From positions 1 through 64,000 of the IMG/VR virus record IMGVR_UViG_3300032038_000040: a stretch of 64,000 bases of DNA; one strand, 5' to 3'. Each line of letters opens with the position of its first letter. The stretch's first letter is position 1. Below, piece after piece: positions 1 to 22,704 of this stretch. The notes below the pieces were generated by a model, which searched no databases, was not told where the DNA came from, and saw only the letters and a list, made by a program, of their open reading frames with translations. The stretch is from a virus. Its lineage: Duplodnaviria; Caudoviricetes. Made by a program: the position numbers and the translations under genes.

Positions 1-1865
1 GCATTTGATGCATTGTAGTCAAGGTTCGTTGGATTAGTTCCGCTTATATATGCATTTTGATTCTGCCCACCATAACCAGTGTGGTATTTCTCATACTGCA
101 TATCCTCCCAGTACTCCTCCGTGCTTCCGTCAGTCCTCTGCCCAAGAGTGTCAAGGCTCAGCTGCTCCACTTTGTCATCCAGAGCGTCAAACTGAGCCTG
201 CAACTCATCCCTTCCCACACGGTTGTCAGCCATATCCTTCGCATGACCTCCGTAACCCATGATGTAGAGGTAGTTGTCAGTATCATGGCTTATGAGTTTC
301 TGAAGATAGGCATATCCGTCATTAGGTGCTTCAAAAGCACCATATACAGGAGATTCATGCTTTTCAATTATTACTCTATTCTCATCAGTAAACACAAGTG
401 GAACAGCACCACCTGTTCTAACAAGGTCAAGCAACAATACCTGTCCTTTTCTTACATCAATTCTTATACCATGAGCAGTTGTTGCCACAGACCAATAAGG
501 CATTTTATCTCCTACATCAAGGTCAGTTGTAGCAATAGCCGAAGGTACCCACCCTTCAATCAACTGCCTCTGAATGTCAGCAGGAGTCTTGGCAGGTCTT
601 GTGGTCTTTTTCCACACATGGGCGGTATTATTGTTTATTCTTGCATCAGTGGTCACATAGGCAAAGCAAGTAGCACCAGCAGGTGCGGTGGCGGTTCCAC
701 TTTCCAATGTTGTAGATGAAAGGTAGTTGGCGGCTGTGATGCTTGCGTAGGCAGTTCCACCTTTCCAAAAACCAGTCCAGTCACCAGAACCAGCGGCACT
801 TGCCCATTTAAACACATCACCCTCTGATGCAGGGAATATATACACTTTTCTACTAACACCACTTTTATCAGTCGTTGCACTATGGTTTGCGCCAATCCTT
901 CGGTTATTGGCAGATATGGCACTATACCCATATTTCTCAAACAGCAAGTCCTCCCAATACTCGCCACTATCATCTTTTCCCATGGTGTCAAGGCTCAGCT
1001 GCTCCACCTTCCCGTCCAGAGCCTCAATCGCACTCTGAACATTTCCTGTTCCAAGGTCAGGTGTATTTGTCAAATCATAACTTATAGCATCAGCAGTAGA
1101 AGGAAAATGTAAGTCAAATACACCAAAGCTCCTCCAAAGACTGTCTGTATATCCCCATATAATCAAATTTGATTGGTCAGCAGTAGTGATGTCAACCCAT
1201 CCGTTAATGTCATAGGATATATTAAGTTCATTAGTAGTACCTCCATTTATAGTATAATTGAACAAATCACCAACGCAGCTTACATTATGGTAATCACATT
1301 CTATAGCCATCAGGGCAGTCATTATATCATCGAGATAATGACGCGAAAGGCCAGACTCCTCAAGCCATCTCGCACAGATGGTTATCTCCACAGTAAATAT
1401 GCTGCCTTGCTCACTTACACTCATAGTATAATAAGGGTCAGAGATAAGAGAGGATTTATAATTTACAAGTAACCTCCCCCTCATACCAGGTTGAGAACTG
1501 CTGAGGTTGACATATCCCATTACAGGACTTGATGGGTCAGGCACACCAGGAGACTTTCCTTCACTGTAGGCAGTCCCTTGAACCATATTGTCAGGTTGTA
1601 GGTAAAGCTTGCTGGTATCATTGTATGGAGCAACACCAACAGTACTGTTTATGGGAACCATTTCAAACAATTGAGGAAGCTGCTCTCCCCTGCCATATAT
1701 TTGACCATTAACTACTATGCAATGTGTGTCACTTGTGTAATACACACAGTTAGGATAAGTGGAGGACAGGACCAAGGCTTGAGCCTCAGTCTTGTCCTTT
1801 ATTGCTAATCTGTCCCTTACTGCCATAAGGGCTTGTCTTAATTCATTTTCATTTGTATAAGCCAT
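1..1865 (-). CDS. Tail fibre/structural protein, 3'-truncated by window edge (>620 aa)
   Basis: ATG at 1863-1865 (MAYTNENELRQ...). The first ~180 codons translated by hand are open, and the track reports no stop, so the frame runs off the edge. No in-frame TAG found. Internal repeat LDxKVEQLSLDT. Lies in the late tail cluster. Confidence 0.7.
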   Translation of the reverse strand, partial: MAYTNENELRQALMAVRDRLAIKDKTEAQALVLSSTYPNCVYYTSDTHCIVVNGQIYGRGEQLPQLFEMVPINSTVGVAPYNDTSKLYLQPDNMVQGTAYSEGKSPGVPDPSSPVMGYVNLSSSQPGMRGRLLVNYKSSLISDPYYTMSVSEQGSIFTVEITICARWLEESGLSRHYLDDIMTALMAIECDYHNVSCVGDLFNYTINGGTTNELNISYDINGWVDITTADQSNLIIWGYTDSLWRSFGVFDLHFPSTADAISYDLTNTPDLGTGNVQSAIEALDGKVEQLSLDTMGKDDSGEYWEDLLFEKYGYSAISANNRRIGANHSATTDKSGVSRKVYIFPASEGDVFKWASAAGSGDWTGFWKGGTAYASITAANYLSSTTLESGTATAPAGATCFAYVTTDARINNNTAHVWKKTTRPAKTPADIQRQLIEGWVPSAIATTDLDVGDKMPYWSVATTAHGIRIDVRKGQVLLLDLVRTGGAVPLVFTDENRVIIEKHESPVYGAFEAPNDGYAYLQKLISHDTDNYLYIMGYGGHAKDMADNRVGRDELQAQFDALDDKVEQLSLDTLGQRTDGSTEEYWEDMQYEKYHTGYGGQNQNAYISGTNPTNLDYNASN

Positions 1866-7997: not shown

Positions 7998-10247
7998 TTA
8001 TATCTTAAAAGGAAAATTATTTTTAAATGCCTGATAATTCTTCTCAAAGAATTTATCATTTCCTAGATAGTCTGATTGTTTGCCCACTCTGTTTTTCTCT
8101 ATATCTCCCTAGTAAAGAATCATGAATTCTTCTCTATACAGCATGACCATACCTAAAGCTCTTACTCTATCCACATTTATATGAGGATTAAACAGTACCA
8201 ACTCTTTTAACAAAGCTCTGTTTTTTATCTAATATAAGTTCAAAGTATTTATTACTTTGTCTTCCCCATCTTCATTTATAGTCACAGGAATAGGTTTTAT
8301 AAGCCAATCTTTTATTAAGGCATTTGCATAGTTATTAACAGCCTAAGTCGCTGTTACTCCCTTACTTCCGGATCCAAAAGAAGAATACTTTACTAACTAT
8401 TTATCTCTTAGATATTCTGGAGTATCAGCAAGTAAGTGGGAACTATTCATTCTAGAAAAATAAGCAAATGTTCCTTTTAGATTTGATTCATATAATCCTC
8501 TTGCATTATAGAATATTAAAGCCAGTCTGAATTTTTCATATAATTCATCTGCATATGTGGTTCTGCCTGTGTATTCTAAAACTATCCTGTCAGTAAATAA
8601 ATCCAAGATAAAGAAGGAGCCCAAAGATTTAGATTCTGCCTAGTCATTATCATAAGGGTCAAATCCTCCAATATATCTATTATTTATTATTTTTCCATTG
8701 CTGTCCTTTTTTGGCATTTCAAATATTTCCAAAGCCCCTTTGTATGTATTCACTTTTAAAGGAAAATCATGTATTGGAACATCATTAGTTGGAATAAATG
8801 TCACTTCATTATTTTTATTAAGTACCAGGTCTCCCACATAAACATCGTCAAATACATTAGGGTCTCCATCAATCTATGCTATTCTTTCATTTATTTGAGT
8901 CACAGGAAATATATTTCCTTGGGTTCTAAGAACTGCTTCTGAAGGAACAATAGGTGCTTCTGCAATTCTTCTTGTAATTGAATTTACATCTTGAGAGTTA
9001 TACTTTACTTTGTATCTGTCTTTTAGTATATGTAGCAATGCCAAAGTCACATCTGAATTTCCATTCTAATCATAACACCCCTCAAAGTTTAGATATGCTG
9101 GAAAGAAATAAGTAAATTGTTTTCTGCTTTGTCCTTCTTTATCATATATATTAGGAATAGCATAGGCATTATATCCATCTGGATTATACATTATTTCCTA
9201 TGCAGAACTAAAATCAGATTCATTGTCTCCTGATGTTCCATAAGCAAAAATTAATCCATAAGTTATATCTCCTTGTTCTACAGAATGTCGCATATTATTA
9301 TATATATCAAGAAGCTTAGGAAAACTACCCATTTCCTCTAGAATATATAAAACTCCTCTAGTACCACGCAGTTTTGATACATCATTTGCAGATGATACTC
9401 CTACCACTGAGTTTAAAGAACCTTTATTAGTATCTGTATCCAAGTCTTTATATCCAGATGTCCATTCGAGTTTATTTATAGAATTTATTAGCCTTCTAGA
9501 TGGAAACTCAGTATTATTATTACAATGATCTATATCAAAGATAAATTTATCCAAAGTCTAATCTCCTCCTTGAAGATACTTCTTATCTGAGGCTGTAATA
9601 TAACTGATTACTTTCTTTCTCACACTTATATCTTCTCCCAATAAGAATCTTTTAGCTAATAATGCCGCTCCACAATATGATTTACCTCTTGCTCTGGATG
9701 CTAACATAAATGCGTGTTTTCCTTTCTTTCTTGCCTAATATAAATAATGAAAGAGATAATAATGACCATCCCAAAATCTAGGGAATGTCACTACTCTTTT
9801 TCCAGTCTTACTTCCTTTTACCTATTCTACTGTAAGCATTGGGCAATAATTAAGAAAGAAATACATATCTCCTGTAATCCATTCTCCATCAGAAGGCCTT
9901 ATCATTCCCTCAAAACATCTTCTTACCTCTGTTCTTACCCATTTTCCATAAGCACTGTTTGGATTAGGATTAGGTCTTAAATTTGTATATCTTCCTGTAT
10001 TTTGAAAGTTTATTGCTGATTGTCTAAAATAGTCCATGTCTTCCAAGATATGAGGAGCAGTCAAATCTATTATTATTTTTCCATCTTCATCCCTTGGAAT
10101 ATCCTTAGCATATGGTCTATCCTTAGCTATAAGTAACTTTATATAAGGAACATTATTAAGAAAATCATCAAATTGTTCTTTTATTTCATCTGGTTCCTTG
10201 TCTAATTCCAGATTATCAATTTGAGTTTGATATTTGTTTAACACCAT
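7998..10247 (-). CDS. terL: Terminase large subunit, 749 aa (TAG read as Gln)
   Basis: Four track ORFs share one frame, ending at TAA 7998. Walker A LASRARGKS, Walker B YILEE, RNase H-like nuclease YIGGFDPYDND and NVDRV. Confidence 0.92.
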
Positions 10248-10491
10248 AATATTTAAGAATTTGAGACATTATATCTACGTATAAGTCAGAGTGATTTGTA
10301 GTGGAAACATTATAGTTTCTACTAGCTGAAGCCAAAAGAGTTTTATTTTTATTATTGATAATAAAAATCTCTAATGTATATGTCTTTATGGCTTTTATTG
10401 AAGTTGGAGTATAATAAAGTCTTGGAATATATGCTCCATCTTCTCCTGTAACACTTTTTAAAGCTTGTAAGAAAATATTAATTTCATTCAT
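10216..10491 (-). CDS. Hypothetical protein
   Basis: 91-aa ORF overlapping both neighbours, co-oriented with the operon. Confidence 0.6.
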   Translation of the reverse strand: MNEINIFLQALKSVTGEDGAYIPRLYYTPTSIKAIKTYTLEIFIINNKNKTLLASASRNYNVSTTNHSDLYVDIMSQILKYYGVKQISNSN

Positions 10492-13211: not shown

Positions 13212-13225
13212 AATTTTATATTTTG

Positions 13226-13299
13226 TGGACTTTATAGGACTTGAACCTATGACCTTTTGATTATGAGTCAACTGCTCTAACCAACTGAGCTAAAAGTCC
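13226..13299 (-). tRNA. tRNA with CAT anticodon (Ile2-like rather than Met)
   Basis: GGACTTTTAGCTCAGTTGGTTAGAGCA-GTTGA CTCATAA TCAAA-...GGTTCAAGTCC cloverleaf. Body resembles lysidine-modified tRNA-Ile2. Confidence 0.9.
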
Positions 13300-13304
13300 T
13301 TAAG

Positions 13305-13376
13305 TACTCCCACCAAGAATCGAACTTGGGTCTACAGTTTAGAAGACTGTAGCTCTATCCACTGAGCTATGGGAGC
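13305..13376 (-). tRNA. tRNA-Arg(UCU)
   Basis: Cloverleaf with anticodon arm ACAGT CTTCTAA ACTGT and T-loop TTCGATT. Confidence 0.9.
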
Positions 13377-13509
13377 AAATGGAGCGACACCAAACTCCAC
13401 AAAAGAAATAAAATAATTCAAATTACAAGTATGGTAAGCTATTCTCACGAACAACTGGTGTCTTTAGAAAAAAGTTTTTTGAAAGGTGTATATTAATCAT
13501 ATATAATGT

Positions 13510-13686
13510 TTAGTTAGAAACTAAAACATCTTTTTTATTGTGATCCATTGTAGATAACTTATTAAGTGCATCCTCAAAATCAAGGAACCACTACTTATTT
13601 GTTAAATCATCTGCTTCCACAGCATGAATAAAAGTATGCAAGGAAGTTAGAATTTCTGGTACTCGCTTTTTTAAGAACTCTTCCAT
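13510..13686 (-). CDS. Small hypothetical protein, 58 aa (1 TAG)
   Basis: MEEFLKKRVPE...; directly downstream of the sigma-A promoter. Confidence 0.55.
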
Positions 13687-13715
13687 TACTTTTTATTTTA
13701 AATAAATATTTGATG

Positions 13716-13747
13716 CAAAGATAACACTTTTATTACATACTTCCAAA
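13716..13747 (-). promoter_or_regulatory. Bacteroidota sigma-A promoter (late operon and tRNAs)
   Basis: TTTG-N20-TATCTTTG, a perfect -33/-7 consensus. Confidence 0.8.
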
Positions 13748-13775
13748 TAAATTTCTACTTTTTTTATGAAAAAAT

Positions 13776-13808
13776 AAAAAGCTACACTATCTTCTCAGAC
13801 AATGTAGC
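13776..13808 (-). terminator. Intrinsic terminator after the suppressor tRNA
   Basis: GCTACA-TT-GTCT GAGA AGAT-AG-TGTAGC followed by TTTTTATTTTTT. Confidence 0.7.
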
Positions 13809-13843
13809 CCAAAATATTATATTCAAACAACCGCCAACCATTG

Positions 13844-13915
13844 CAGCCCTACTAAGACTCGAACTTAGCTCTCAGGATTTAGAGTCCCATGTAATAACCG
13901 CTATACTATAGGGCA
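13844..13915 (-). tRNA. Amber suppressor tRNA (anticodon CUA), Gln-type body
   Basis: TGCCCTA..TAGTATAGCGGTTATTAC-A-TGGGA CTCTAAA TCCTG..CTAAG TTCGAGT CTTAG TAGGGCT G. Anticodon CTA at 13880-13882. U1 start, unpaired 1:72 and G73 resemble tRNA-Gln. Confidence 0.9.
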
Positions 13916-15756: not shown

Positions 15757-15836
15757 GCTATCATAATTTAATATGGTAAAATACACAGTTGAAAGATTAC
15801 TGTGAGAAATAGGTTCGAGTCCTATTGATAGCACCA
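15757..15836 (+). tRNA. tRNA-like element with enlarged anticodon loop (non-canonical)
   Basis: Acceptor GCTATCA/TGATAGC-A-CCA, T arm ATAGG TTCGAGT CCTAT, anticodon stem CACAGT/ACTGTG with 9-nt loop TGAAAGATT. Confidence 0.7.
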
Positions 15837-17477: not shown

Positions 17478-17547
17478 GTCAAATAGTCTCAACCTTCTCC
17501 TCACATTGGCACTTTTGTGTCTTTGTGGGGAGATAACTATTTTTGCT

Positions 17548-17751
17548 ATGACACCATTAGAAAAATTCATAAATTCAGACCCTTATTTAAAGGAGTCTAG
17601 AACAAAAAGAGCATATGCATTACTTGCATTTGCTTTCCCCGAAAGAACTATAATAAACTTGCTAAGTACAAATAATGTCAAACAAGTTATTTGTACTTGT
17701 AACCATTATAAAGTAAATCAAAAGCAGGTTAGAGAAATTCTTAACATTTAA
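17548..17751 (+). CDS. Small hypothetical protein
   Basis: ATG 17548 (MTPLEKF...) after the hairpin at 17496-17533. Confidence 0.55.
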   Translation: MTPLEKFINSDPYLKESRTKRAYALLAFAFPERTIINLLSTNNVKQVICTCNHYKVNQKQVREILNI

Positions 17752-17783
17752 TTTGCATATTAATAATATTTTGATTAACTTTG
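17752..17783 (+). promoter_or_regulatory. Bacteroidota sigma-A promoter
   Basis: TTTG-N20-TAACTTTG, perfect consensus, pointing into the non-coding kilobase. Confidence 0.8.
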
Positions 17784-17789
17784 CAATAG

Positions 17790-18742
17790 ATATAAAGCGG
17801 AATACCGTGGTTGGGAAGACTAAGGTTAATAAGGTTATTTGGTGTTTTTGTAGCTTATCTTGCTTGTGAAAGTAGGATAAGCATTTTGGTTGAAAGAAAT
17901 TACAATAATATATATTTAGGGCAGGCCTCCTGTCCATAATGGCAAGGAGCACATTAATTTGTGTTTCTTGCTATTAAAAGAATAAACCAGCAATGGTATA
18001 AAGTGAACCAGTTATTCAAAGTATTGGTTTGCCTCTTTGCATTTTATATGTAGAGGGTCATGAGAAGGCTATATTATATAAGTATATCTTGGATTAAGGT
18101 CGGGCAGACCCTAAAGAGATATACGTTGGCTCTAACCAAGTCAACTTGGCCAGTAATGGTGACAATATATAATATAATTTAACTCCTGAAGGTCGCCAAC
18201 CTGAAAGAGTTAATAATCATTTATTTGTATCCTATATTACAGCCAATGTAATACTTAGTGTGGCAGCTAAGGCAGAAATGGTAGGATAATATAAATAAAT
18301 AGAAGTGAGTAGCCTTGGCAGGCAAAAGCAGGATGGTGTTTATATCTAAACTACTCAAAAGGTAGCATGGTATAGAGGGCAATCACATCATCTATTTCGG
18401 TTCTTTGATTTAATTAATATTAGTATCAATTAATTTAAAGTAAAAAAGCAAAAGTATTGTCCACTCCAGCATGAAAATACAGTTGTTCTGTTGTAATACA
18501 CAGACTATGTGAGTACCGCAAGGAAAGCATAGAAATGAAATGAGTAATCAACTTGTAACAGGGGGCACCCTGTGTATCCGCAAGAGCAAGGGATGAAAGG
18601 AGTAATTTACATAATGTTGGAGTAGTAGTTGCAGGACTGATAAAACCTGTCTGTATGTCACCTACCTATAGAAATATGGGTGTGCTTAAAGTCTGAAAGG
18701 ATGGAAAATGGTGATGAAAAAGGTCAAAGCTCAGCCTTTTTA
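17790..18742 (+). ncRNA. Large ornate structured ncRNA (GOLLD/ROOL-class candidate)
   Basis: No plus-strand ORF over 60 aa across ~950 nt. Many GNRA-capped hairpins and nested long-range helices. Has its own promoter and a 3' hairpin with a U-run. Confidence 0.75.
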
Positions 18743-18815
18743 CTTCTTAAATTTGGGATTAATGGTTATTTAAATTTTTCCTTTGCCTCCTATCTTTTTT
18801 ATTTTAATTGTATTT

Positions 18816-19145
18816 ATGAATGATATTAAATTGACAGCTTCTTTTATTCTTCCAGGAAGAGTAATTGAGGGGTCTGATTCATACCAAAATGAATCACTTG
18901 AAGTGTATGATGTAGATAGCAAGAAAACTTCTATTATTAAGTATCGTACTAGAATTCCATTGCCTGCAGAACAAGTAATTAAAGTCTCAGAGCAGACTTT
19001 TAATCACTGGATGGAACATAGAACAACTGAACATACTTCCGTACAATGGAAAAAGATGCCAGAAAGACTTAAAGTGATTTCCCATCTAAAGGAAATACAA
19101 TGTGCTCTGGGAGCAACAACCTTTAAATTTCATATATTTGAATAA
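18816..19145 (+). CDS. Hypothetical protein
   Basis: ATG 18816; the stop overlaps the helicase start. Confidence 0.7.
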   Translation: MNDIKLTASFILPGRVIEGSDSYQNESLEVYDVDSKKTSIIKYRTRIPLPAEQVIKVSEQTFNHWMEHRTTEHTSVQWKKMPERLKVISHLKEIQCALGATTFKFHIFE

Positions 19146-20248
19146 TGAATAGAGAAGAAACTCAAAAACTAATTAATAGTATCCCTAATAAATACATTTT
19201 ACTGCAATTACCTACAGGATTTGGGAAATCAAAAATAGCTTTAGAGAAAGCTTTCTCTCATAATCTAAATGCTAAAATATTAATAGTAATTCCAAAGATT
19301 GTATTAATAGATAATTGGAGTTGTGAATTTGAAACTTGGGGATATTCTGAAGACAATGTGACATATTCTACATATTTGTCTTTAGATAAGCATCTGAATG
19401 AGCATTTTGATACTATTATATTTGATGAAGGACACCATATTACTGAAAGATGTGCGGATTCAATAGAAAGAATGAGCTTTGATAATGTTATAATCCTGTC
19501 AGCTACTGTAAAGAAAGAAGTGATGCAGAGATTACATTATCTATTCCCTAATCTTTTTGTACATAAAGTTTCTGTAAGGAAAGCCATTGAAGAGGAAATA
19601 TTACCAGACCCTAAAGTAATATTGATTCCTATGGAACTAGATAATACAACGAAAACAGAATCATATAAGAAGAATAATATTATCTATAAAGTAACAAAAA
19701 GAGGCTATTACAATCATATTTCTTGTATTATAGACAATTTAAAAACTTTGTCTATGGGAGGAAATATGATAATGAAAAGAATGTGGCTCACAAAAGCAGG
19801 GCAAAGATTAAAATGGCTGTCTTCTCAGAAAACTCCTATTGTTGAGGAGATACTTAAGAAGCTCAGATACAAGAAAACCCTGACTTTCTGTAATAGTATA
19901 AAGCAGGCAGAGTGTCTTTGCGAATATGCTATTCACTCTAAGAATCCTCAATCTGATATGTTCTTGCTAATGTTTAACAGGAATGAAATAAGACATATTT
20001 CAAGTGTGAATATATTAGATGAGGGAGTCAATTTAAAAGGATGCCAAGTTGGTATATTTGCTAATTTGAACAGCTCTGATAGAATGATAAAACAAAGATT
20101 GGGAAGATTACTTAGGCATAAGAAACCTTATATCATAATACCTTTCTTTAAGAATACCAGAGATGAGGAAATTGTAAACAATATGCTCTTGGACTATAAT
20201 CCTGATTTGATAAGCATAATTAATTCTACAAAAGAACTTAAGTTATGA
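19145..20248 (+). CDS. Superfamily 2 (DExH) helicase
   Basis: LPTGFGKS, DEGHH, SAT, QRLGRLLR. Confidence 0.88.
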   Translation: MNREETQKLINSIPNKYILLQLPTGFGKSKIALEKAFSHNLNAKILIVIPKIVLIDNWSCEFETWGYSEDNVTYSTYLSLDKHLNEHFDTIIFDEGHHITERCADSIERMSFDNVIILSATVKKEVMQRLHYLFPNLFVHKVSVRKAIEEEILPDPKVILIPMELDNTTKTESYKKNNIIYKVTKRGYYNHISCIIDNLKTLSMGGNMIMKRMWLTKAGQRLKWLSSQKTPIVEEILKKLRYKKTLTFCNSIKQAECLCEYAIHSKNPQSDMFLLMFNRNEIRHISSVNILDEGVNLKGCQVGIFANLNSSDRMIKQRLGRLLRHKKPYIIIPFFKNTRDEEIVNNMLLDYNPDLISIINSTKELKL

Positions 20249-20841
20249 AATGGAAATTAAGAAAAGATTTATTGTTGAAAAATTCTCTGACTGAGGAAGA
20301 ATTTCTATTGCTGTATATTCTATCCAAAGACATTAGAATAAAAGACTTAATAGAATCTCTCACAAATAAGAATTTTATTCATCCTGATTTATTTGATAGT
20401 AATGGTGGAGTAGTAAGCAATCAAGTTAAGAACCTGGTGAATAGTATAATAATAAATTCTTATTCAGATATTGCATCCAAAGAAGATATTTTTACTCAAT
20501 TGGCTGTGGCAATGCAAAATTGTTATCCATCAGGAAGAAAAGCTGGAACAACGTATTCTTGGAGAGGCAGTACTAAAATAATAGCTGATAGAATAAAGAA
20601 AGTTGCTGTTAAGTTTAAAACTGAATTTACTGTTGAAGAAGTGACTATTGTAACAAAGCACTTTGTAAATGGATTTACAGATAAAACTTATATGCCACTA
20701 CTTCAATATTTTATTTGTAAAGAAGACATGAATAAGAACTTTATTTCAAGGTTCATGGAAGAAATAGAACTCTACAGAGAAAATAAAGAAAAGTATGACA
20801 ATGAGAAAAATAACTATGAATCATTTGGAGATTTAGTATGA
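20245..20841 (+). CDS. Hypothetical replication protein (loader/initiator candidate)
   Basis: 198 aa, translationally coupled to the DnaB-like gene. Confidence 0.6.
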   Translation: MKWKLRKDLLLKNSLTEEEFLLLYILSKDIRIKDLIESLTNKNFIHPDLFDSNGGVVSNQVKNLVNSIIINSYSDIASKEDIFTQLAVAMQNCYPSGRKAGTTYSWRGSTKIIADRIKKVAVKFKTEFTVEEVTIVTKHFVNGFTDKTYMPLLQYFICKEDMNKNFISRFMEEIELYRENKEKYDNEKNNYESFGDLV

Positions 20842-22049
20842 GTCTGGAGCAAAGAATAATAACCAATCTTGAGGAGAGGAGGGACAATGTTCTCAATGGA
20901 GGAATAAACTGTCTTCCCCTCCCATTTCTAAGATTCAGATCTGAACTGTCTGGAATAGAGCAAGGGCATTATTATTTAATATCGGGAGCTACCAAATCAG
21001 CTAAAACCCAGATAGCAAATTATATATTTGTGTACAATACTGTTCTGTACACATATTATAATCCTGATATTATATATCCTAAAGTATTCTATTTCCCTCT
21101 TGAAGAAACCCCGGAAAATATCACATTAAGATTTATGGCTTTCCTTATATATCATATTACAAAAGGGAAAATAAGAATAAGTCCAACAGATTTAAAGTCT
21201 ACTGATGAAAGGAAACCATTATCTAAAGAGGTATTGAATATTCTATATTCCAATGAATTTCATAATATTATGGAGCATTATGAGAATATTGTGACATTTT
21301 ATGATGACAGGAATCCTACAGGAATATGGAAAACAATGAATAACTATGCAAGAACTCATGGAGAGATACATAATAAGACTATAAAGGTGAAAGAACTTGA
21401 TGAGGTAACTGGGGAAGAGAAACTTGTAAATAGAGAGATATTTGATTATTATGTTCCAAAAGTTCCTGAAGAATATATATTTATTGTTGTGGATCACGTA
21501 AGTCTCTTGATTCCAGAAAGAAATATGGATATAAGAGAATGTATCACAAAGCTGTCTGAATATATGGTGATTCTTAGAAATAGATTTAACTATATTCCTG
21601 TAATAATTCAACAGCAATCTACTGAAACTCAGAGTCTTGATGCATTTAAACAAGGGAAAATAAGGCCTACTGTAGCTGGATTAGGAGATAGTAAATATAC
21701 TGCCAGAGACTGTGATGTGATGATAGGAATGACTAATCCCAACTCATTTGAGTTATCTTATTATTACAATTACAAGATAAATGATGGAGGTGAGGGTCTT
21801 AAAGACAATTTTAGAATGCTGGAAATAGTTCTTAACAGAGCTGGAAGTGCTAATGGATTATGCCCTGTGTTCTTTGATGGGGCAATCAACTTATTTAAAG
21901 AGCTTCCCTTACCAAAAGACAAGGAAATAGAATTATACTACAACAAAGCAGAAAGAATGAGGAAAGAGAAACCCATATCAACAAAAACTTTATTTGCATT
22001 TACTAAAAAATTAATTAATCATGTCAAATTTCGTAATTATTTTAGGTGA
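20838..22049 (+). CDS. dnaB: DnaB-like replicative helicase
   Basis: LISGATKSAKT (Walker A variant), IVVDH, IQQQ, LNRAG. Confidence 0.8.
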   Translation: MSLEQRIITNLEERRDNVLNGGINCLPLPFLRFRSELSGIEQGHYYLISGATKSAKTQIANYIFVYNTVLYTYYNPDIIYPKVFYFPLEETPENITLRFMAFLIYHITKGKIRISPTDLKSTDERKPLSKEVLNILYSNEFHNIMEHYENIVTFYDDRNPTGIWKTMNNYARTHGEIHNKTIKVKELDEVTGEEKLVNREIFDYYVPKVPEEYIFIVVDHVSLLIPERNMDIRECITKLSEYMVILRNRFNYIPVIIQQQSTETQSLDAFKQGKIRPTVAGLGDSKYTARDCDVMIGMTNPNSFELSYYYNYKINDGGEGLKDNFRMLEIVLNRAGSANGLCPVFFDGAINLFKELPLPKDKEIELYYNKAERMRKEKPISTKTLFAFTKKLINHVKFRNYFR

Positions 22050-22704
22050 ATCAGGCAGTGGAAAATCCACAAGCTTGAAAACATTAAATCCAGAAGAAAC
22101 TTGTATTCTCAATGTGCTGGGAAAAAGACTCCCTTTTAAGGGAAGTGCCTTATCCTATAATAAAGAGAACAAGAATTTATTTCAAATCTCTGATTGGAAT
22201 ACAGTAAAGACTTATCTGGAGTCTATAAGTAATAATGCTCTGCACATAAAAAATGTTGTAATTGATGATGCCATTTATATTATGCGGACAGAATTTTTCA
22301 ATCGCAGCAAAGAAAGAGGCTATGATAAATACAATGAGTTAGCTGACCATTTCAGACAAATTATTGCTACTTGTTCTTCCCTTAGAAATGATTTGAATAT
22401 CTTCATGTTATTGCACACTGAGCCAGTAGAAGTTGAAGGCAGTATTGTAGGATATAAGAATTCTTCTGTTGGAAAACTATTGGATAAATTGTATAATCCT
22501 CTTGAGAACGTGACAGTAGTTTTATTTGCTCGCCCTAAGTTCGATGATAAGGGAAATCCCACCTATGGATTCTATACTCATAAGAGGAAAATAGATGGTG
22601 TTGAATTTCCATCTAAAACTCCTGATGGTATGTTTGAGGAAGATTTCATTCCTAATGATTTAGGACTAGTAGTAAAAACAATGAAAGAATATTATGGGGA
22701 ATAA
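22021..22704 (+). CDS. AAA/P-loop ATPase (Sak4-like)
   Basis: GESGSGKST, VVIDD. Confidence 0.8.
   Translation: MSNFVIILGESGSGKSTSLKTLNPEETCILNVLGKRLPFKGSALSYNKENKNLFQISDWNTVKTYLESISNNALHIKNVVIDDAIYIMRTEFFNRSKERGYDKYNELADHFRQIIATCSSLRNDLNIFMLLHTEPVEVEGSIVGYKNSSVGKLLDKLYNPLENVTVVLFARPKFDDKGNPTYGFYTHKRKIDGVEFPSKTPDGMFEEDFIPNDLGLVVKTMKEYYGE

Follow-up and report, generated by a model that had tools for sequence, protein, structure and literature searches.

A divergent GOLLD RNA, very probably complete, in a crAss-like phage of the ruminant gut

The plus strand of positions 17917-18737 in the window (the whole 64,000-nt stretch of DNA that we analysed, part of a viral contig of 96 kb that is ~95% complete) very probably encodes a complete two-domain GOLLD RNA of ~820 nt, which belongs to a divergent subgroup lying under the Rfam threshold and is carried by a crAss-like phage of the ruminant gut. 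GOLLD RNAs have been known since 2009, and cryo-EM structures of their cages now exist; crAss-like phages are among the most abundant gut phages. The RNA described here is a divergent new member of this known family and not a new RNA class, and what is still new is its crAss-like carrier and the divergence of its sequence.

The RNA lies in a gene-free gap of ~1.07 kb with the following surroundings:

17548-17751: 67-aa ORF, 5' border of the gap
18819-19145: 108-aa ORF, 3' border of the gap, with the helicase gene next
19145-20248: helicase gene, after the 108-aa ORF

Between 17752 and 18782 no ORF exceeds 53 aa under any of three genetic codes (table 11, TAG read as Q, and table 4), which bears out the description of ~1 kb without a credible ORF given in an earlier sequence-only reading of this DNA. 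The plus strand of 17790-18330 folds to -168 kcal/mol compared to -126 in shuffles (z -6.85), whereas the minus strand of the same region reaches z -2.86, in agreement with that reading's view that G-U pairs favour the plus strand. In the closest kin of the phage, contigs L121 and L122 (helicase 78% identical), both flanking genes are kept, and the slot of the GOLLD RNA is occupied by unrelated small ORFs with a similar promoter in front; Pfam and PHROGs searches of the flanking small proteins and of the L122 replacement ORFs returned nothing informative. That gene callers place small ORFs in the equivalent slot of these two relatives could be taken to mean that the gap itself is protein-coding DNA with short or recoded genes. 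We consider this extremely improbable, given the ORF lengths under all three codes, substitutions that track base pairs (described below) and the location of the small ORFs of L121 and L122 in unrelated sequence.

Positions 18331-18737 (plus strand) match the Rfam GOLLD model (RF02032) over its entire length, positions 1-416 of 416, with a score of 102.9 bits and E-values of 1e-27 to 2e-29. This score is below the curated gathering threshold of 150 bits, which is an annotation cut-off and not a structural feature; at Rfam gathering thresholds the whole window yields tRNAs only, and the GOLLD match appears with E-value reporting. Model positions ~232-271 align poorly with the RNA of the window, but the signatures of the family are all present (the UCAAAAG loop, AAAGCAAAAGU, GAGUAAU and the terminal CUCAGCC) and are invariant in an alignment of nine sequences of the subgroup. 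The 3' part of the RNA comprises the following features:

18331-18393, plus strand: first 3'-domain stem, Rfam model positions 1-65; helices 1-4, 87-100% of cells paired, covarying
18331-39/18385-93, plus strand: outer helix of the first stem
18355-18361, plus strand: invariant UCAAAAG loop
18394-18444, plus strand: AU-rich variable linker, tRNA-free here
18445-18737, plus strand: rest of the 3' domain, Rfam GOLLD match
18445-18455, plus strand: AAAGCAAAAGU
18463-72/18614-23, plus strand: long-range (pseudoknot) helix of the Rfam model, 7 of 10 pairs compensated
within 18445-18737, plus strand: GUAAU, CGCAAGG, GGCA and GAAA hairpins
18600-18606, plus strand: GAGUAAU
18722-18737, plus strand: terminal GGUCAAAGCUCAGCCU, then U5

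The sequence-only reading had likened the locus to the GOLLD/ROOL class of giant RNAs and proposed a search against Rfam, adding that a strong full-length GOLLD or ROOL hit would remove the novelty. The search did return a full-length GOLLD match, at 103 bits and thus under the gathering score, and because the match spans the model, most of the novelty is removed. The GOLLD half of the comparison therefore stood (E ~1e-27), while the ROOL half fell: no match to the ROOL model (RF03087) was found in the whole 96-kb record, nor in the window at E-values up to 10. ROOL, which was first found in the cow rumen and forms RNA-only cages, resembles the present RNA in being a large ornate RNA of phages and prophages and in its cow-rumen habitat, which is also that of the window phage, but by published descriptions it is unrelated to GOLLD in sequence and fold. 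The same reading's fallback, that the locus could represent a new class, is rejected by the full-length match. A chance or convergent likeness to GOLLD in a new class of giant RNA would be compatible with a score under the gathering threshold and with a blastn search of 17700-18800 against 50,697 GenBank phages, which gave no match. We give this explanation next to no weight, since it would have to account for an E-value of ~1e-27 across the entire GOLLD model, for an order of motifs common to the window RNA and GOLLD in both domains, and for the tRNAs nested in the linker of subgroup members, a trait of published GOLLDs.

Membership in the GOLLD family thus rests on the full-length 3'-domain match, the signature motifs and the long-range helix, together with a ~400-nt variable 5' domain (opening with a hairpin, AAUAAAC, a GNRA hairpin and AUAAAGUGA), a linker rich in A and U (with a tRNA inside in relatives), a size of ~0.8 kb, over the 700 nt expected of the family, and a phage carrier. 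The window RNA differs from canonical viral copies in scoring 103 bits rather than 305-332 (curated cut-off 150), in an extra hairpin at 17937-17976 and in some 3'-domain hairpins that are shorter or poorly aligned; its carrier is a crAss-like phage, and no tRNA array is adjacent.

Low scores are shared by a group of sequences. While canonical GOLLDs on IMG/VR contigs (n = 19) scored 305-332 bits, L108/L347 scored 91.8 bits, and a search pattern built from features common to the window and L347 recovered nine further metagenome contigs, eight of which contained full-length GOLLD matches of 91-125 bits. Nine distinct subgroup sequences, including those of the window and L347, were available for comparison, with the identical L352 and L353 counted once. 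A divergent GOLLD subgroup is thus missed by the Rfam gathering threshold. A looser pattern, AAAGCAAAAGT-N125-155-GAGTAAT, was set aside: it gave 119 viral and 120 genome matches, mostly by chance, of which ~20 viral matches and none of the genome matches tested also had the long-range helix or matched the GOLLD model. Because most of these matches are chance, the list of organisms they come from is uninformative about the host range of GOLLD.

The structure of the 3' domain was tested on the nine-sequence alignment, using the RNAalifold consensus plus two Rfam helices that it missed. Across the 84 pairs of this structure, 92.9% of cells held standard pairs, compared to 37-40% when the 3' partners were slid, and double changes occurred in 54 of the 84 pairs, compared to 8-19 with slid partners; none of 500 shuffles reached the observed measures. 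Two long-range helices noticed earlier from the letters alone proved to be GOLLD elements, both of them covarying: the Rfam model has 18332-39/18385-92 as its first helix and 18463-72/18614-23 as its long-range (pseudoknot) helix. We also observed pairing between 18377-18383, which form an internal bulge in the first stem of the 3' domain, and 18456-18462 just after AAAGCAAAAGU, so that the linker is closed off; five of the seven pairs of this helix covary among the nine sequences, and the Rfam consensus line leaves them unpaired. ARAGORN found no tRNA in the linker of the window RNA (18394-18444), and in L348, L350 and L357 a tRNA is nested at the linker position. Separately, a 41-nt piece of the CGCAAGG hairpin region (18506-18546) recurs in other contigs of all four public runs whose contigs were aligned to this region, with identical foreign flanks on both sides; these copies may come from other relatives of GOLLD or from an unrelated RNA with this piece in common.

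The sequence upstream of the 3' domain contains the following features:

17752-17783, plus strand: candidate Bacteroidota-type promoter, TTTG-N20-TAACTTTG, exact consensus match, predicted start ~17790
17790-17916, plus strand: non-conserved 5' leader of ~125 nt, not alignable to relatives
17853-17882, plus strand: 13-bp GTGA-capped hairpin, then AUUUUGG; terminator-like score, present in the MFE fold
17917-18330, plus strand: GOLLD 5' domain, homologous in L349, L352 and L355; fold z -6.85
17919-17935, plus strand: first hairpin of the 5' domain
within the 5' domain, plus strand: AAUAAAC, GCAA hairpin 17987-17996, UAUAAAGUGA, further GNRA hairpins
18242-18264, plus strand: paired hairpin loops GCCAA (18242-46) and GUGGC (18260-64), complementary
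near 18313-18322, plus strand: junction motif CUUGGCAG, end of the 5' domain

The sequence that precedes the 3' domain in L349 and in L352/L353 shares 70-73% identity with positions 17912-18330, and L355 is alignable. For the four 5'-domain sequences (window, L349, L352 and L355) RNAalifold predicted 86 pairs, 40 of which show compensatory changes. The opening of the domain, consisting of the hairpin 17919-17935, AAUAAAC, a GNRA hairpin and AUAAAGUGA, recurs in canonical GOLLDs of more than 300 bits with near-identical words, in the same order and at the same distance from the 3' domain. Since canonical motifs open the 5' domain at the matching distance, the conserved unit appears to be a whole GOLLD of ~821 nt (17917-18737), shorter than the ~950 nt first proposed. 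The hairpins described before the family was recognised were recovered with altered meaning for two of them: the 13-bp GTGA-capped stem (17853-17882) exists but falls inside the non-conserved leader, and the long stem at 17937-17976 is an insertion specific to the window; all four of the reported GNRA hairpins were found. Complementary GCCA and TGGC loops had likewise been read as a kissing contact. The complementarity holds, with four to five complementary bases between the GCCAA and GUGGC loops in all four sequences and a two-sided, compensating change in L355 (ACCAA/GUGGU), but for the contact itself, within or between molecules, these four sequences are suggestive only. In the window all bases of helix 18065-71/18310-16 pair perfectly; two relatives maintain it with the help of G-U pairs, and in the third it is disrupted.

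The proposal that the RNA has its own promoter finds support in an exact match at 17752-17783 to TTTG-N20-TAnnTTTG, which we take to be the Bacteroidota housekeeping-promoter consensus, so that promoter activity at this site may be predicted from the sequence. Exact consensus sites number six in the window, compared to 1.84 expected. A similar TTTTGCAATAGA stretch lies at the same distance (~140 nt) upstream of the GOLLD in L349. Another exact TTTG-N-TAnnTTTG site is found at 17514-17545 (plus strand), just ahead of the 67-aa ORF. A further promoter candidate at 17885-17918 (TTTG-N22-TATATTTA) was not adopted, as its spacing and last base are off consensus.

From its PolA and terminase, which are closest to those of Steigviridae crAss-like phages (cr116_1 59%, crAss001 52%, Kolpuevirus 46%), the carrier is placed among the crAss-like phages (Crassvirales), nearest to Steigviridae, as the earlier mention of a crAss-like context had anticipated; its hosts are presumably Bacteroidota. 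A search for the locus with the single helicase protein found no relatives and an alignment was required, which led to 80 crAss-like IMG/VR records, 40 of them at least 90% complete. GOLLD was absent from all 80 of these records and from all three named relatives; a marginal GOLLD match of 18 bits in the crAss-like record G050 was not reproduced, and its site is a tRNA array. Two other crAss-like contigs carry this GOLLD syntenically: L353, with a terminase 52% identical and with neighbouring late genes and a tRNA cluster in common, and L349, with the upstream 109-aa gene in common. Given its presence in L349 and L353 and its absence from the closest kin, GOLLD is therefore an accessory element of a few crAss-like lineages at one locus. 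The literature search found no paper that joins GOLLD RNA with crAss-like phages, and the part of the published 806-sequence GOLLD alignment that we consulted includes some Bacteroides genome pieces of ~183 nt and names no crAss-like phage (PMC12286853).

Words of the stretch occur in 24 public runs, 12 of which are RNA libraries, mostly bovine, and the best run, a bovine gut metatranscriptome, contains 70% of the words; these runs were chosen with the stretch itself, the RNA evidence consists of contigs, and RNA libraries can hold DNA. Across positions 14-23 kb, this metatranscriptome yielded an identical contig of 578 nt starting at 17927, and a bovine RNA library from a second study yielded a contig of 813 nt, ~93% identical, with ends at 17924 and 18735. 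No loose end was found at either contig-end site, and a contig from a DNA run bridges 17924, leaving the contig ends as a weak hint of the 5' end of the RNA. The true 5' end is probably at or before 17919, because the contigs end 5-8 nt inside the first conserved hairpin. Contigs from RNA runs leave 17816-17926 and 18816-22400 uncovered, and neither these holes nor contig depth were counted as evidence.

The distribution of the RNA and the contig ends bear on whether the locus could lack any separate role, either as a decaying remnant of GOLLD or because it serves the helicase operon as a long structured leader. In favour of this, the nearest kin and the 80 crAss-like records are without GOLLD, and there is no strong terminator between GOLLD and the gene that follows. 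Nevertheless, the two domains are both intact and show compensatory changes among phages that have just 52% identity in the terminase, and the RNA-library contig stops at both predicted ends instead of running into the helicase gene. On balance we judge a remnant or leader to be highly improbable and retain the interpretation of an intact GOLLD RNA.

Cryo-EM studies have shown that closed GOLLD oligomers form in the absence of protein, as a 14-mer for env-38 and a 12-mer for the RNA of Streptococcus agalactiae, that the 5' domains form the caps and the 3' domains the rings of the cage with the linker inside, and that published GOLLDs have a tRNA in the linker (PMC12286853, PMC12990946). By analogy, it is reasonably likely that the window GOLLD also forms a cage, because both domains and the conserved loops are kept, as in the GOLLDs solved by cryo-EM. 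We envision that the host-type promoter at 17752-17783, where the replication module begins, probably drives transcription, that the ~125-nt leader implied by this promoter would be trimmed or unstable unless the RNA starts closer to 17917, and that GOLLD would accumulate as a discrete stable RNA. Through loop-loop and A-minor contacts, 12-14 copies would then self-assemble into a closed homo-oligomeric cage, the AU-rich linker pointing to the inside. Differences in secondary-structure elements have been tied to differences in oligomer number in a published review, and with such elements altering the oligomer number and poor alignment at ~232-271, the oligomeric state is not readable from the sequence.

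These considerations also admit an RNA derived from GOLLD whose function or assembly has diverged, a true structural variant that could assemble in another copy number, serve as a scaffold in monomeric form or be bound by protein. Bit scores three-fold under the canonical ones, the extra hairpin at 17937-17976, the poor alignment of model positions 232-271 and the known effect of small secondary-structure differences on GOLLD stoichiometry would fit such a variant. Against it, the RNA retains all conserved motifs as well as the long-range helix and the boundaries of the two domains, and the solved GOLLDs differ from one another to a like degree, so that we consider divergence of this kind unlikely and favour a GOLLD of the usual two-domain kind.

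What the RNA does for the phage can be addressed more tentatively. Published pull-downs connect GOLLD with ribosomes. Our best guess, on the basis of these pull-downs and of the tRNAs that relatives nest in the linker, is that during lytic growth the RNA might act in trans in a process connected with tRNA or translation; with the linker empty here, the cage itself, and not a cargo tRNA, would be the working part. It is also possible, although we hold it with no great confidence, that this is the first recognised GOLLD of the Crassvirales, representing a distinct gut and rumen subfamily and acting as an exchangeable accessory cassette in a swap slot, for example in host takeover or counter-defence. 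If so, close phages that naturally have or lack it could reveal the function of GOLLD cages. The copy described here extends the GOLLD family to crAss-like phages, related phages in which the slot holds GOLLD, small ORFs or nothing provide a natural comparison, and the cultured relatives (crAss001, Kolpuevirus) are possible test systems for GOLLD RNA. The position of the subgroup under the Rfam cut-off means that routine annotation leaves an empty gap at such loci.

Several further observations concern small RNAs in the window and in the contigs compared with it. GOLLD genes of phages and prophages are often neighbours of tRNA genes; the nearest tRNAs of the window are 2-4.5 kb from GOLLD and not adjacent to it, and the main cluster is on the opposite strand:

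13225-13915, minus strand: main tRNA cluster

This cluster includes a tRNA with the CTA anticodon (amber suppressor) at 13843-13915 (minus strand), and the large terminase subunit at 8001-10268 (minus strand) is open only when TAG is read as Q, which together point to stop-codon recoding of the late genes as predicted from sequence. An odd tRNA-like gene that scores 56.3 bits with Rfam and is not called by ARAGORN lies on the early strand at 15757-15833 (plus strand), ~2 kb upstream of GOLLD. In record G050 (L207, 418-617 and 1194-2383, both minus strand) an array of seven tRNAs lies beside a group I intron match of 61 bits. The phage contig L347, which carries a divergent GOLLD, has a tmRNA match of 49.3 bits, above the cut-off, at 418-767 (minus strand), ~0.7 kb downstream, and a weak tmRNA-like match of ~80 nt follows a tRNA array in L356 (5191-5270, plus strand; 34.3 bits, below the 47-bit cut-off). 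In both L348 and L356 the first GOLLD hairpin comes immediately after a tRNA-like 3' end (GGTTCGATTCC...) and a short hairpin, an arrangement which suggests that the 5' end of GOLLD in these contigs may be released by tRNA processing enzymes. Finally, an abiF RNA motif (43.2 bits, gathering threshold 37 bits) was found in a crAss-like relative (L125 and L126, 2694-2730, plus strand), within 700 nt of gene-free sequence that lies upstream of the helicase module.
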